NCBI GenBank assembly: GCA_031372065.1 | Contig: JANMKN010000195.1 | Span: 1-23,336, forward strand | Length of the DNA: 23,336 bases | From: Abditibacteriaceae bacterium | Lineage (GTDB): Bacteria; Armatimonadota; Abditibacteriia; Abditibacteriales; Abditibacteriaceae | Direction of reading: 5' to 3' | In this document: positions 9,001 through 15,000 of the stretch, piece by piece | Layout: the number at the start of each line of letters is the position of its first letter | Position numbering within the stretch: position 1 is the stretch's first letter | Position numbers: made by a program

Positions 9001-12000
9001 ATTCGCGCGCTGAGCCGCCAATGGAATCCATAGTCAACGACAAGCGCACAATGCCGTTCACTTCTACATCGCGCATGGTTTGACCGTAAACCACCATTTG
9101 CCCCATGACAGCGGGGCGCCGCAGCATCAGGGCCGCTCCCACGGCGGCAACAGCAGCACAGCACAGCACTGTAGCCCATAAGATTGGCCCCAGAGGACGA
9201 CGCCATGCCGTCCAATTGCGGCGCGCTGGCATTTCTTTGTGCAAAAGCGTGCCGCAACCCGCGCAATGCGGATAAGTGACGAATTTTTCCAGATTAATGA
9301 CCGCACAATGTGGACAGCGAATTTTTCTCATGCCGCGCGCTGGCAAAAGCAGGCCCGAAAAGCCAGAACGATGCTCCGCGTGACCATTTTGCAGGTTTGC
9401 GTGCCCGTTTTGATGAGTGCTTGGTTCGTTGGCCGTTTTCACTGTAGTCTTTTGGCGATTCTTAAACTGCTTCCCAAAATGCTTTGTCAATCGCTTCGCG
9501 CAAGGCGCGCACATTTTCTTGGGGCGTGCCGCTGTTGAAAATATTGGAGCCGCACACCAAAACATCGGCTCCGGCGCGCACCACGAGCGGCGCTGTTGCC
9601 GGAGAAACGCCGCCATCCACTTGAATCAAGAATTTCAAGCCTTTTTCTTGGCGATGCCGGTTCAATTCGGCAATTTTATCCACCGCGAGCGGCAAAAATT
9701 TCTGGCCCGAAAAACCCGGATTGACACTCATCACCAGCACATAATCCAAAGTGGGCAAAATCACATCCAAAGCGGCCACCGGCGTCGCCGGATTCAAAAC
9801 CGCGCCAGCCATCGCACCGCCTTCTTTGATGCGCCCGATCAGACGATGCAAATGCGCTCCGGCTTCCACATGAACGCTGATGCTGTTGGCACCTGCTTCG
9901 ATAAATTCATCCAAATAATCGCCGGGCTTGGCAAGCATCAAATGCGCGTCGAAGTGCAACTCTGTATGCGGGCGCAGCGCCGCCAAAAACATCGGGCCAA
10001 GCGTTAAATTCGGCACAAAATGGCCGTCCATCGCGTCCCAATGCAGCCATTCCACGCCTGCTTCAGTTAATTCGCGCACTGTGTCCAAAGGCCGCGCCCA
10101 ATCGGAAGCGATCATCGAAGGCGCCAGTTTTACGGCACGCCGTGTTATGCTTTCACTCACGATTTTTCTCGCTTTCGGGGCCGATTTCGTTGCCAAAAGG
10201 TGGCGTTGCGGGCAGTATTTGCGGCGGTTTCACATTGACCACTTCCGGCGTGGCATTAGAGGGCGCAATAATGCTGGGAAGTTCGATAGGTTTTATCCAA
10301 TCTGAAGTGGGCAGCGAAGTTGGCAGTGTGGAAGAAATCGGCGGTGATGCCAAACTTTGTCCCGGCAAAGGCTGATTTTGCGCCGCCTGTTGCTCTTGAA
10401 ATTTAGCTGTCTGCGCCACCCAATTTTCCACTGCTGATGCCATGCGATCCAGCCCCGACGCGGCGCGATTGAGGCAATACAAAGCGTAAAGACCGCCCAA
10501 TAAAATCAACAAAACCACGCCCAACTGCAACATCATAAGCAGACCCAAAAGGCCCGCCAAAGGATTACTTTCCATGTGATTCAATGTGCTTCAATGAAAC
10601 TCAGTGTTTCTTCCAACGAACGAATGCCCGTTACAGTGCCCACTTCCGTCACGCAGCAAGCGCCGGTGGCGTTGCCCAAACGCCCGCAGGTTTCCAAATC
10701 GTAGCCGCGCACAACGCCCGCCAAAAAACCCGCCGCAAAAGCATCTCCGGCGCCTGTTGCATCAACGGATTGCACTTTGTAAGCGGGCAAATGCCATTCG
10801 CTTGCGCCATCGCGCACATACGAACCGGCTTCGCCCATTTTGAGCGCGACGACGCCCACACCTTCGTCTTGAAAGGCCCGCGCCACATCTTGCGGCGTTT
10901 GCAAAGCCGGAAAACAATGGCGCGCTTCGTGAAAACTGGGCACAAAATAGTCAATGTAAGGCAAAACAGGCCGCAAAGTTTCCATCCACGCGCCCGAAGC
11001 GTCCCAAACGGTGTCCAACGCGGTTTTCAGGCCCATTTCGCGCGCTTTTTTCAAAATCCCGGCGCAGGGCGCGCCATCGAATTTCGGCATGACAAAATGC
11101 CCCGCGACGTGCAATAATTTCGCACCGCGCACCAAATCCCAGTTCACATCAGCTCCGGTAAATTCCGCGTTGGCGCCGGTGTAATGAATAAACGAACGCT
11201 CGCCATCGGACGCGATCATTACCATCGTCGCCGAAGTCGCCGTTTGCTCATCGGTCACGATGCCTGTGGTATCAACGTCGTGATTTTCTAAAATGCCACG
11301 CACAAGGTCGCCAAAACCATCGCGCCCCACTTTGCCGATAATCGCCGTCGGCACGCCAAGTTTTTGCAATCCGATGCCGGTATTGGCCGCGCAACCGCCA
11401 ATTGAAGGCCGCATTTCGCGGCATAACGATAATTCGCCGCGCTGCGGATAAGAATCCACAGGCCGCGCGATGACATCGGCAACGATGATTCCAAGGCAAA
11501 CAATTTCGGGCATGGATAAGGTAGGTTTTTGGTGTTGGGTCTTAGGTCTTAAAACGTCCAATACTTTTGGTCCAAAACCTAAAACCTTTCTGTGGCTTCG
11601 ATTCCCAGTATCAAAAGCGCGCTTTGCAGGGCGCTTTGCGCGCCGCGCAGTAATTCTAAATTTAAAGGCATGTCGGGTTTTGAAGCGGCCAAAAGGCGGC
11701 GAACAGCTTCGGAAAACTCCACTGTCCAGCGCGCCACGCGTTGCGGCGCGCGTTGCAAGGCCGCATTTTCGGCGGTGTCGGGCCACAAAGCCACCAAACG
11801 GGCCAATTCGGCTTCTGCGGGCGTAAAATCGGCGCTTTCAGCGGCGTTTTGCGAAGTATTTTGCGCTTCGGATTGGCGCATCATCGTCGCCAAACGCGAA
11901 GGCGCCAAACGCGCGGCGTAGGCCGGATTATATTCGTCGTCGCGCACAGCGTTTTCGACATTAATTATGGTCGCCTCGTCCCAAGCAGACAGCAAAAGAT

Positions 12001-15000
12001 GCAAGCGCAAATTGTCGGAATTCACATCAGCAAGGGCATCCTGCAAAAGCAAAGGCGCACCGTCGCGGCCTTCGACAAGTTCGCCATCCAAACGCAAACG
12101 CGCGTTTTCGCAGACCAAAATTTCCAGTTTGCTCACATCGCAGCCAATAGCTTTGAGCGCCGCGTGCGTGCGCGCCACATAAGGCCGATGTTCGCCGCTC
12201 CAAATGTTGATGAGCAACGCGAAACCGCGATTGAATTTCCAAACGTGATACGCAATATCGGAGGCTAAATAAGTCGGCTGCCTGTCGCTGCGCACCACGG
12301 GATGATCCAAATCATCGCCAAATTGCGAAGTTTTCAGCCAGAAAGCGCCGTCATTTTCGTAAATGTGCCCGGCAGCGCGCAATTTTTCGATGGCATTATC
12401 CACGCGGCCTTCGGCGCGCAGCGTGTTTTCCGATGTCCACAAATCAAAACGCACACCGAGATTTTTCAATTCCTGTTTTTGCGCGAAAATAGCGGCCTCT
12501 GCGGCCTCGCGGGCGAAAAACAGATTGCGTTCGGCGGCAGGTTCGAGCAAATGCTTGTTGCCGTCGCGCGCAGCTAAATCGCGCGCCACACCGCGCACGA
12601 AATCGTCCTGCAAAATGCCTTCGGGCAGGTTGCTATTGCCAAAGTGCGACTCGTAAAAAGCACCGACACTTTCGCCCAAAAGCCGCATTTTCGACGAACT
12701 GGGCACATCGTTGAGGAAAAATTCGCGCGTCACATCGGCGCCCTGAAATTCCAAAAGTCGACACAACGCTTCGCCACACACGGCATGACGCGCCGAGGTT
12801 AAAGTCAGCGGGCTATTGGGTTCGCTCGATACAAATTCGACATTGACGCGCCGCCCGCTTAAAGCCGTGCCCGCGCCAAAACGCGCACCTTCGCGCGCCG
12901 CCTTCGCTACGATTTCCTTGGTTGCAGTTTGATCCATGCGGAAATTCAAAAAACCTTTCGCTTCTTCGATGGTGCCCGGCCAATGCGCCAACTGCGCTTG
13001 TAAAGAAGCAGCGCACTGCGCGGGCGATATTTGCAAAATTTTACTCAAAACCAGCGGCGCATTGCTCGAAAAATCGCCGCGATGCCGCACTTCTTTGGCA
13101 TTATGCGCGCGTTTGACTTCGATTTTTTCTTCGCTGCCCACCACGCCATTGCGTCGCACAATTTCGATGATTTCCTGCCGTAAAGTGTGCCGCGTCGGTT
13201 TCATTTGGCTTTAATTCAAGCGCAAAATCAGATTTTCCAGCCACGTCATCGCGCCATACATCAAAAACATCACAGCCGTCATGCCCAGTGCCGAATAAGC
13301 CAGCCCCGAACGCAGTAATCGTGAGCCAAACGACGGCAAAACGTGTGGCTGTTCTTGATATTTTTCCAACACTTCGCGCCCGGCGCGGATGCCGCTTTCG
13401 ATTTGCTTTTTGGTGGCCGGTTTGGTCGTAAAGTAGTTTTGCACCATTTCGCCGAAACTGCGCCATGAAAAATAAACCAAAATCAGCGCCAGCAGAATCA
13501 TCATCGGATCAAACGAGGGCAAGTGCTGAAAAAGAATCGTAATCAAGAGCGAGAGAACCATCAAATTGGTGCCGCAACGCGGATGAGCGCGCGGCATTTG
13601 CGCCACGATTTCCGGCGTCAATGGCAAGCCGCGCTCAATGGCCCAAACCGTTTGATGTTCCGCCGCGTGAAAACCCGAAATGGGCAAAGCGCGCATTGTC
13701 AGCAGGAAAACCAAGCCTTGCGCCGCTGTGCTGAGAAAATCGAAAAGTCCGCCATCGGAGGTTCCGCCCAAACGACCCGAAACATACATCGCGGCCCATT
13801 CGGAATTGATAAAAGTCAGCGGCAGCAAAACCACAAAATACGCTACCAAAAAGCAAAAACCCAGCGTCGCGCCCGATAAAAACAAGCCAAAAGGCGGCGC
13901 GCCGCCGCTAATGGTGCCGGTTGTCAGCCATACACCCAATGGCGTCGCCATGCCGCCGACCACCGGAGGCCGGATATTGCGCCCCAAAGCCGCCACAATG
14001 TCAGCGCGCGAAATCATGCCGCGATAGCTGCCATCCGGGTCAATGACGGGCAGGGCCGAGCAATTGTAACGATCAAGGGTAATCAGCGCGTTGTGCAGCG
14101 AAAACAAGCTCGGAATGATGCCGTAATCGCGTTGCATCACATCGCGCGCCGTCAGGCTCGTCAAATCGGCCAAAGGTGGCAGCAAAGGCGCTTCTTGGGC
14201 AGTTAAATCGCTTTCTGGCGCGTCATCTTGTGGCGCTTCCGGCCAAAACGGGGATTGACCGTGACTTTCGGACGCGGCGTGACCATTAACATTCCCATTA
14301 ACACCAATCGAAACCGGCTGGGCGCGCCGCGAAGATTCCTGCTCTTCGAGAATCGGCAAAACGGCGATGGACAAATCGCGCTCGTCCACAAGGCCAATCA
14401 CGCGCGATTGACGCGCCTGCGAGTTCCATTGCGGCCCACCGGCGCCATCTTCGGTGCCGCCGGTGATAATGCGATCCAAAACGGGCAAGGCGCTGCATTC
14501 GGCGGTGCGCAGATTCTCCGCGACAAGGCCAAGGGGCATTTCCGAATTTAAAACCGGCGTGGCGCGGGCAAGTTGTCCGGCTCGAACAAAAGGCATAAGA
14601 AAATAAAAAGCGCGCCGCGAGAATCACTCCACGGGCGCGCTGGTTTGCACGACAAGGGAAATTATATCAACTTGCGGCGCATGAATTCGCATTTTCCCGC
14701 ACGCCCCGATGTTATCACTTCAGGCATTTACAGGTCAAAAGCGAGTCACAGGGGCACTATTTGTCTAAAATATGCGCTCAGACACAGCAAAAGTGACCTC
14801 ATTGGCGCCATAGATGAACTCATCCGCGCCAAGAATGCCCTCATCCATATCAAAAATGCCCTCATTCGCGATAAAAATGCACTCATATTTCGCAAATATG
14901 AGTGCATTTTTTGGAAATATGACCTCATCTTTGGCGTAAATGAGGTCACTTTGGGGCAATTTAAGTCACAAAAAGCGCTCTAATTGCCGCCAATCACTTC

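Follow-up and report, generated by a model that had tools for sequence, protein, structure and literature searches.

HisZ, a paralogue of histidyl-tRNA synthetase (HisRS), is the regulatory subunit of HisG; it does not catalyse adenylation and senses its amino acid (PMC9437257). Cyclodipeptide synthases such as AlbC have a class I fold in which the amino-acid pocket was kept and the HIGH and KMSKS motifs were lost, and they use aminoacyl-tRNA (PMC3105412). For arginyl-tRNA synthetase (ArgRS), the related, conserved and non-aminoacylating vertebrate protein DALRD3 directs tRNA-Arg to METTL2 (PMC7237682). In bacteria, NrtL (NCBIfam NF045898) is an ArgS-related anticodon-binding protein that is not named a ligase; no paper on NrtL was found in our literature search, and the table of duplicated synthetases in a 2022 review has no ArgRS row. 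Regarding the ligand site of the active enzyme, it was shown that the exchanges D118A and D317A abolish arginine binding and that this binding does not depend on tRNA (PMC3956977).

An ArgRS homologue at the ancestral argS locus

The window, i.e., the whole stretch of 23,336 nucleotides that was analysed, belongs to a genome of the Abditibacteriaceae (Armatimonadota) and contains an ArgRS-like gene, here called P0001, in the following context:

11579..13204, minus strand: ArgRS-like gene (P0001; protein of 541 aa) of the ancestral Armatimonadota argS type, predicted to be non-aminoacylating (ORF, domain search, alignment, AlphaFold/Foldseek, TIGR00456)
13211..14596, minus strand: CBS-DUF1385 gene directly upstream of P0001, marking the ancestral argS locus (context)
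14980..16410, minus strand: serS, member of the dnaA-dnaN-recF-dciA-serS-CBS-argS* run in family loci (context only)
1469-3235, plus strand, contig C20 of the same genome (G000): second, canonical E. coli-type ArgRS (PNVAKPLHVGH, KSRTG, C-terminal Met)

With its N-terminal Add1 domain, Rossmann core and DALR domain, P0001 has the architecture and the fold of an active class I ArgRS (TIGR00456; 3FNR type), with which it also shares the arginine pocket and the orthologous locus. All three Pfam domains, Arg_tRNA_synt_N, tRNA-synt_1d and DALR_1, are present. The genome-wide survey's note was right in describing a full-length three-domain homologue, and wrong in placing tRNA-synt_1d below the Pfam cut-off, which it passes (36.9 vs. 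23.3 bits). The closest solved relative is the Campylobacter ArgRS 3fnr (E 1e-43; residues 121-539 aligned), against which the AlphaFold model (pLDDT 95.9) gave a TM of 0.74/0.89; the top Foldseek matches were all ArgRS and the ESM Atlas search returned nothing except ArgRS clusters. A homodimer prediction for residues 112-541 gave a score of 0.00, which is no answer and weighs neither way. P0001 differs from the active enzyme in scoring 221.6 bits with TIGR00456, below the cut-off of 261.65, compared to 370-476 for three sole type-1 enzymes and 481.7 for the second ArgRS of the genome, and in always occurring beside such a second ArgRS. Most named orthologue copies carry the database label of an ordinary arginine--tRNA ligase, and an orthologue (P0093) is annotated in the cultured Abditibacterium utsteinense.

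The survey's account of ancestry and of presence throughout the family was borne out. Synteny and trees identify P0001 as the ancestral Armatimonadota ArgRS, sitting at the ancestral locus. One orthologue occurs in 27/27 Abditibacteriaceae genomes of six genera, down to approximately 43% identity; in G023 the copy is frameshifted, and the neighbouring recF and CBS genes are too, and the copy in G025 is interrupted by contig ends. A canonical E. coli-type ArgRS accompanies it in all 27 genomes, frameshifted in one (G015), on a contig where 2/5 other matched genes are frameshifted too and with the ArgRS motifs intact. This second type was found in 46/201 Armatimonadota genomes in the phylum scan.

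The surroundings yielded no dedicated partner. A scan of the ORFs of the window and of 38 picked neighbour ORFs identified no arginine-metabolism gene, the neighbours examined included no acceptor or tailoring genes, and no tRNA gene was found in the 34 loci scanned. The promoter scan stayed at chance level (8 vs. 6.6). The CBS-DUF1385 gene was rejected as dedicated partner since it is present in 185/201 genomes, including 6/7 two-ArgRS genomes without the old copy. A gene of 860-950 aa that follows argS in other families was rejected as well; its product resembles a secreted, glycosidase-like protein, and G000 matches its C-terminal module only.

Residues kept and residues lost

Conservation was counted over 120 P0001 orthologues unless the 27 family copies are stated. 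As controls served 57 Armatimonadota ArgRSs that are the sole ArgRS of their genome (single-copy status checked) and, as a second set, matches listed from other phyla in a contig scan. Pocket residues in E. coli numbering (D118, Y313, D317, R324 and Q341) were taken from PMC3956977. The alignment places the relevant features, all on the minus strand, as follows:

12854..13204: Add1 domain at the N-terminus (aa 1-117), with the A20 pocket retained in part
12836..12838: E123, equivalent to E. coli D118, guanidinium-binding, kept in 120/120
12821..12823: E128, equivalent to E. coli N123; D in 104 and E in 16 of 120 orthologues; controls have N throughout (57/57 and 80/80)
12794..12805: HIGH position, reading TLTS; preceding loop without lysine (0/120)
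12275..12379: Ins2 insertion (aa 276-310), 8/9 invariant positions kept
12257..12271: Y312-x3-D316, arginine-pocket residues equivalent to Y313 and D317 of E. coli, each conserved in 120/120
12188..12199: G-[AP]-D-H replaced by S-G-E-H; G336 and D338 changed, H339 (E. coli Q341) kept in 120/120
12062..12073: KMSKS-loop position, reading EGRD; [KT]R in 0/27 family copies, 4/120 orthologues and 57/57 sole enzymes
11894..11929: anticodon-binding helix, changed from NPVYYVQYAHAR to NPAYAARLAPSR
11582..12046: DALR/Add2 domain (aa 387-541), 9/39 invariant positions retained; C-terminal Met exchanged in 118/120

The motif changes of the survey's note, HIGH to TLTS and MSKR to EGRD, were confirmed at T134-L-T-S137 and E378-G-R-D381, and the note had concluded from them that the enzyme is catalytically dead. 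The control set shows that the HIGH position is not diagnostic. Sole ArgRSs read TVGS, SVVN, AVVQ, TVAG and the like at this position; both histidines are absent in 29/57, and in 21/57 the glycine is absent as well, just as in P0001. Loss of HIGH as proof of a dead enzyme is thus ruled out, and motif-based calls of death may fail in this phylum because its sole enzymes tolerate large changes there. In Armatimonadota a sole ArgRS commonly has no HIGH histidines, which also bears on the essentiality of HIGH.

Loss of aminoacylation is therefore better argued from features that sole enzymes never lose. N123, the K/T-R of the KMSKS loop, the QYAHAR helix, the C-terminal Met, D338 and Q366 are invariant in the 57 sole enzymes and were lost together. 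E. coli N123, which we take to contact the main chain or carboxylate of arginine, corresponds to an acidic residue in 120/120 orthologues and to N in 137/137 controls. Some lysine lies within residues 376-384 in 23/120 orthologues. A lysine in the HIGH loop, reportedly an alternative to the KMSKS-loop lysine (Sekine, in 2001), might have served as stand-in and was found in 0/120. The helix motif QY[AG]x[AT]R is present in 57/57 sole enzymes, 0/27 family copies and 0/120 orthologues; the new motif of this helix is itself conserved (L433 in 120/120, P435 in 116/120). The C-terminal Met is kept in 2/120 orthologues, and the H502 and Y505 positions are replaced as well. Taken together, this residue pattern makes it very probable that P0001 lost aminoacylation.

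The side-chain pocket for arginine was retained. All 120/120 orthologues have the equivalents of D118, Y313, D317, R324 and Q341, where either K or R counts for R324, and new invariant residues were fixed in the orthologues. The pocket-bearing core retains 34/42 of the positions that do not vary among sole enzymes, and DALR 9/39 (p 2e-7). E259, D300, R305 and R345, whose equivalents presumably touch the CCA end in yeast ArgRS, are each kept in 120/120, and S126 is invariant, as it is in active enzymes. On the tRNA side, R437 is kept in 120/120; in the A20 pocket of Add1, N87 is kept in 116/120 and the F85 position holds F in 82/120 orthologues and R in 29/120. The survey's proposal of a tRNA(Arg)- or arginine-binding protein thus stands for arginine, and is weakened for tRNA by the DALR changes and by the missing N-terminal domain in relatives. 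It is likely that P0001 still binds an arginyl group, as judged from the pocket residues.

This division sets P0001 apart from its nearest relatives among the non-ligases. DALRD3 keeps DALR and has no recognisable catalytic motif, whereas in P0001 the pocket was retained and DALR remodelled. The NrtL model of 327 positions aligns in two stretches, with the N-terminal part and with DALR, so that NrtL lacks most of the core, which is full-length in P0001; P0001 reaches 74.7 bits with NF045898 (cut-off 340). The statement that no bacterial pseudo-ArgRS had been described must be qualified by the existence of NrtL, which is built differently. AlbC is TyrRS/TrpRS-like, has a single domain and a catalytic serine and is not homologous to P0001 at family level.

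Selection and recurrence in other families

The dN/dS ratio, missing from the survey's note, was computed and ranges from 0.07 to 0.24 in 11/11 family pairs tested, indicating purifying selection. It is near that of the second ArgRS in close pairs; the median dN ratio of old copy to second enzyme is 1.43 (153 pairs). In four pairs outside the family dN/dS is higher (0.19-0.47).

The pattern is not confined to the Abditibacteriaceae. The old copy is retained in 21/28 two-ArgRS genomes of other families, and none was found in 7/28. Many of these old copies repeat the P0001 pattern and some have no N-terminal tRNA domain, which is absent in most copies of family f13 and both of f28. Similarity was the means of finding the copies outside Abditibacteriaceae, and it favours copies whose core is conserved: with this bias, four of five pocket positions are kept in 21/21 old copies from other two-ArgRS genomes (H339 in 19/21), pocket residues are kept in 43/43 degenerate representatives, and the 15 degenerate copies of families f6, f13 and f28 keep 33/42 core vs. 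6/39 DALR positions. N123 became acidic in 8/15 of the latter and is changed in 24/43 degenerate representatives vs. 0/107 intact ones. As regards the number of origins of the pattern, degenerate copies were grouped by FastTree and left unresolved by a quick IQ-TREE C20 tree; in an AU test (32/61 rows) one clade for them was not rejected (p 0.73). A cluster look-up of 20 representatives returned a taxon for one, Capsulimonas.

Candidate roles of the arginine pocket

The retention pattern points to an undescribed arginine-dependent function. As working model we propose, with about an even chance of being correct, that P0001 acts without ATP as an arginine-binding sensor or regulatory subunit, by analogy to HisZ for histidine. 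A second, E. coli-type argS would have taken tRNA charging over, and the old ArgRS would then have lost both the active site's ATP side and the anticodon read-out, with the side-chain pocket staying. The ligand, arginine or an arginyl moiety (agmatine, N-terminal Arg), would sit between E123, Y312, D316 and H339, and the conserved new DALR surface (RDDE-NPAYAARLxPSRL, LARLVALWPD, C-terminal Phe) may relay the signal to a protein or RNA partner. A kept amino-acid site with lost adenylation, read in P0001 from sequence, is what the two proteins would share; HisZ is class II, HisRS-derived and has a known partner, whereas P0001 is class I, keeps the anticodon-domain fold and showed no partner or pathway link, with no arg gene among the neighbours examined. 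ArgR_C was found in 3/201 phylum genomes and in no Abditibacteriaceae, which makes an arginine sensor of another kind plausible; loss of ArgR as specific correlate was rejected, as ArgR_C was not found in 198/201 genomes regardless of ArgRS copy number. Against the sensor, the genome's ArgB has an N-terminal extension and ELFTDxGxGT, which we take to mark the arginine-sensitive type, and may need no HisZ-like subunit. Moreover, the acidic residue at N123 may repel a free carboxylate and would thus favour a ligand other than free arginine, and the 7/28 genomes without an old copy suggest that the role is dispensable in some lineages.

The same acidic exchange would suit a ligand without free carboxylate, such as the charged 3' end of Arg-tRNA, for which P0001 could be an ATP-independent enzyme or carrier, i.e., an arginyl transferase or a mischarged-tRNA deacylase, which would work in the manner of the cyclodipeptide synthases. 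The retained pocket, Ins2 and the four presumed CCA-end residues fit this role, for which cyclodipeptide synthases set a precedent (PMC3105412); we nevertheless consider it unlikely, as there is no new family-specific invariant nucleophile (S126 being shared with active enzymes), no ATE_C gene in the genome, no acceptor or tailoring gene among the neighbours examined, and relatives have eroded tRNA-binding domains or lack them. This erosion also speaks against the tRNA-handling option of the survey's note, in which P0001 would bind tRNA(Arg) as adaptor for a modifying enzyme or be a scaffold for another synthetase, like DALRD3-METTL2 or NrtL. The full three-domain fold, N87, R437, A20 in all five tRNA-Arg genes and an adjacent serS in 9 family loci, together with a reported archaeal ArgRS-SerRS partnership (PMC7373986), are in its favour. 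However, the anticodon helix, H502, Y505, the C-terminal Met and partly F85 are replaced, buried E123 and D316 would not be needed, and DALRD3 and NrtL show the opposite retention, so that an adaptor appears improbable. A division of labour between the two ArgRSs by A20 was excluded since all five tRNA-Arg genes carry this base; the tRNA-Ile(aat) reported by ARAGORN was considered a false call, and there is a TilS-like gene.

There is similarly little probability that P0001 still aminoacylates conditionally or on a tRNA subset. The sole enzymes without HIGH histidines, the degenerate KMSK of many ArgRSs (PMC3956977; PMC8318970), the dN/dS close to that of the second enzyme and the frameshifted second gene of G015 would allow it; the joint loss of six otherwise invariant features, the lack of a compensating HIGH-loop lysine and the second gene in every family genome argue against it, and the G015 frameshift lies on a contig with further frameshifts and leaves the motifs intact. 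Finally, a remnant in slow decay, or a structural role that has nothing to do with arginine, with the core conserved for the fold alone, would agree with the 7/28 genomes without a copy, the higher dN/dS of the outside pairs and the median dN ratio, but hardly with retention throughout six genera, the low dN/dS in the family, invariant ligand-facing charged residues and newly fixed invariants, and is about as doubtful.

In the known ArgRS-derived non-ligases that we found, DALRD3 and NrtL, it is the tRNA-binding part that was retained; P0001, under strong selection throughout its family, represents the opposite split, which recurs in other families. We tentatively suggest, at somewhat less than even probability, that the ancestral Armatimonadota ArgRS already had a second job carried out by the arginine pocket alone, be it arginine sensing in a phylum largely devoid of ArgR or ATP-free handling of arginyl esters, and that upon each arrival of a foreign argS selection removes ATP and anticodon functions in similar order, leaving this job as a stand-alone protein. 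If true, nature would repeatedly have dissected out a hidden function of a synthetase, and P0001 would be the first described class I, ArgRS-derived bacterial amino-acid sensor.

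The ancestral argS locus and the second arginyl-tRNA synthetase

P0001, the ancestral-type arginyl-tRNA synthetase (ArgRS)-like protein, is encoded in the gene run dnaA-dnaN-peptidase-recF-dciA-serS-CBS/DUF1385-[P0001]-pfkB, and its GC and GC3 contents are like those of the adjoining genes.

11579-13204, minus strand: open reading frame of P0001, 541 aa
13211-14596, minus strand: protein with CBS and DUF1385 domains, usually encoded directly upstream of the ancestral argS

The CBS-DUF1385 protein is present in 185 of 201 genomes of the phylum Armatimonadota and matched no NCBIfam family; its gene is the immediate upstream neighbor of the P0001-type gene in most of the loci examined. 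This includes genomes in which the P0001-type protein is the sole ArgRS, showing that P0001 stands at the ancestral argS locus. All three ArgRS domains of P0001 are matched in Pfam. The genome-wide survey's note had placed tRNA-synt_1d below the Pfam cut-off; this has to be corrected, as the domain scores 36.9 against a cut-off of 23.3. The closest solved structure is the Campylobacter ArgRS (E 1e-43), and in the alignment with it TLTS is found at the HIGH and EGRD at the MSKR position. The AlphaFold model, built with 119 sequences, reaches a pLDDT of 95.9, and each of the best 20 Foldseek matches listed is an ArgRS.

Next to P0001, the source genome G000 encodes another ArgRS on contig C20 (P0002; C20:1469-3235, plus strand), which belongs to the E. 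coli/Neisseria type (454-458 bits) and carries HVGH, the HIGH-loop lysine, KSRTG and the C-terminal Met. For TIGR00456 (cut-off 261.65) P0002 scores 481.7, three sole enzymes of the ancestral type score 370-476, and P0001 scores 221.6. The survey's note was therefore right about a canonical second ArgRS, and likewise about the retention of the ancestral copy in all Abditibacteriaceae: a P0001 orthologue is found in 27/27 family genomes, with the copy of G023 being frameshifted, as are its neighbours, and that of G025 being interrupted by contig ends. All 27 genomes hold the second type as well. The sole exception to its intactness is the frameshifted gene of G015, on a contig with frame changes in two of five other matched genes, and we read it as an assembly error. 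At E<=1e-45, the second type occurs in 46 of 201 sampled phylum genomes. P0001 is thus an ancestral ArgRS that was displaced by the second type.

Several further genes were observed at these loci. Two proteins of the window (10153-10584 and 8714-9616, both minus strand), each kept beside rpe in six family loci, have no match in Pfam or NCBIfam. In 15 loci of other families, argS is followed by a protein type of 860-950 aa (L078:9942-12539, plus strand) without Pfam match, which falls into Armatimonadota clusters and has weak glycosidase/CBM look-alikes; in seven loci a membrane-like protein of 285 aa comes next (L078:12539-13390, plus strand). Neither is found at the argS locus in Abditibacteriaceae. 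One origin-region locus of G012 contains two serS-like reading frames (L072:11736-13133 and 13998-14996). Moreover, in G000 eight tRNA genes form an array whose last member is a rare tRNA-Arg(GCG) (C272:5671-6560), and the genome has a tRNA-Sec gene (C287:22492-22586).

Residues lost and residues retained

Three sets of P0001-type sequences were aligned: the 27 family copies (set A), 57 sole enzymes drawn across families from 155 genomes without the second type (set B), and 21 copies beside a second type in families other than Abditibacteriaceae (set C). A Pfam check of single-copy status covered G165, G148, G197, G137, G093, G046, G059, G158 and G181, and this status was confirmed for several HIGH-less ArgRSs in closed or near-closed genomes. 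The HIGH position is highly variable in set B (SVVN, TVGS, AVVQ, TVAS and others): both histidines are absent in 29/57 sole enzymes, and in 21/57 the glycine is absent as well, while among 80 same-type enzymes from other phyla 70 have the first histidine and 64 the second. As sole enzymes often lack the HIGH histidines, their loss is no proof of death in this phylum, and the destroyed HIGH motif, taken in the survey's note as evidence of a dead enzyme, cannot carry that conclusion. Sole and presumably essential ArgRSs of this kind are L033, L035, L053-L055, L155, L162 and L172 of other Armatimonadota. Lineage-specific insertions of about 25-40 aa were seen in the catalytic domain of the sole ArgRSs L056 and L058 (family f10) and L053-L055 (f7), and the sole ArgRSs of f10 are at or under the PF00750 cut-off in genome scans.

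Other losses do separate the family copies from the sole enzymes. The position of N123 (E. coli numbering) is asparagine in 57/57 sole enzymes and 80/80 of the enzymes from other phyla, and aspartate or glutamate in 27/27 family copies and 120/120 wider orthologues. All 57 members of set B, and none of the 27 of set A, carry [KT]R in the KMSKS loop; QY[AG]x[AT]R has the same distribution, its region being missing in one family copy. The C-terminal Met is retained in 2/120 P0001 orthologues, and G336, D338, Q366 and V368, positions that line the ATP side of the active site in class I enzymes, have mostly given way to T, E, E and A. An alternative catalytic lysine reportedly lies in the HIGH loop of ArgRS; it is found in 0/120 orthologues and is thus absent, too. 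This answers the survey's caveat that the motif loss might be compensated, though some lysine occurs at residues 376-384 in 23/120.

According to Bi et al. (PMC3956977), D118, Y313, D317 and R324 contact the arginine side chain and N123, H132 and Q341 its main chain, and D118A and D317A abolish arginine binding, for which tRNA is unnecessary. The mapped pocket residues E123, Y312, D316, K/R323 and H339 (P0001 numbering) are retained in 120/120 orthologues. Scoring the positions that are >=90% invariant in set B, set A retains 34/42 in the pocket-bearing core versus 9/39 in the DALR domain (p 2e-7), which has acquired fixed residues specific to set A (R421-D-D-E, A430, L433, P435, W474, R502). 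Nei-Gojobori dN/dS values of P0001 are 0.07-0.24 (11 close pairs). Among the closest pairs they lie near those of the second enzyme, and the dN ratio has a median of 1.43 (153 pairs); the protein is under selection. P0001 has lost ATP-side and anticodon features that are otherwise invariant, with its arginine pocket intact, suggesting that it is very probably unable to aminoacylate and quite likely still binds an arginyl group.

Old copies in other families

Outside the family, 28 two-ArgRS genomes (G072 included) were found; the old copy is retained in 21 and was not found in seven. In the alignment these copies form a gradient of degeneration: the two of f29 are intact, the two of f18 lack the lysine of the loop and the tyrosine of QY, those of f3 have lost the DALR motif, and those of f6, f13 and f28 show further losses, the N-terminal domain being absent in most f13 and both f28 copies. 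The 15 most degenerate copies retain 33/42 core and 6/39 DALR positions, and N123 is changed to D in 3/7 copies of f6 (and to Q in two more), 3/6 of f13 and 2/2 of f28. When representatives clustered at 50% identity were searched with a profile, the best 150 of 4129 at E<=1e-30 were classed as degenerate (43, members of sets A and C among them) or intact (107). All 43 degenerate ones keep the five pocket residues, and N123 is changed in 24/43 versus 0/107 intact ones; such similarity searches are biased toward copies with a conserved core, which leaves the 27/27 of set A unaffected.

In the tree, the f18 and f29 copies each cluster within their own family beside its sole enzymes (SH-aLRT 100 and 98), so the retentions were independent there. 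In f13 and f28, the second-type genes match P0002 with 258-369 bits and are less similar to it than that of E. coli (454), implying separate gains. A single origin of the set A, f6, f13 and f28 copies was not rejected by the AU test (p 0.73).

In f28, at L192 (G096:C149) and L052 (G072:C150), the incoming argS adjoins the truncated old copy or lies one gene off. P0246 of Capsulimonas (461 aa) shares 70% identity with an intact f29 copy; having lost the loop lysine, it probably marks one more independent onset of this decay. The degenerate-looking representatives P0225 and P0250, with L251 of another phylum as nearest reference (46-47%), are possible cases outside Armatimonadota. A third, longer ArgRS type (open frames of 655-681 aa) is in apparent use in L135 and L136 (f22) and G035 (f11), where the ancestral copy was not found.

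Possible roles of the retained protein

P0001 could, with roughly even chances, serve as an arginine-binding sensor or regulatory subunit by analogy to HisZ. This role is favored because the pocket persists where the tRNA-binding domains decay or disappear, and because the ArgR C-terminal domain occurs in only 3/201 phylum genomes, all of f10. As counter-evidence, a partner was not found, the neighbors examined include no arg gene, the ArgB of G000 seems to carry its own arginine site, judged by its motif, and the seven two-ArgRS genomes without a detected old copy apparently manage without it. The main rival, which we consider unlikely, is an ATP-independent handler of the Arg-tRNA end resembling cyclodipeptide synthases (PMC3105412). 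Ins2 is kept, and aspartate at N123 would suit a ligand without free carboxylate; in solved ArgRSs the HIGH histidines bind this carboxylate (10.1101/606459). A tRNA adaptor fits less well beside the eroded DALR domain, as does residual ArgRS activity beside the lost ATP-side features and a mere leftover beside the low dN/dS values, and each of these three seems rather improbable.

Among known systems, the Oenococcus argS2 presumably adjoins arginine deiminase genes. P0001 qualifies neither as an active ArgRS nor as NrtL (NF045898), for which it scores 74.7 against a cut-off of 340. DALRD3 keeps the tRNA-binding domain (PMC7237682), and P0001 is the reverse. Duplicated synthetases are tabulated in PMC9437257 without an ArgRS row, and literature searches, mostly outside subscription journals, turned up no account of a P0001-like protein. 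As a summary, P0001 is a real and conserved paralogue of ArgRS that probably does not aminoacylate and whose arginine pocket is intact, and the same pattern is observed in several families of Armatimonadota.
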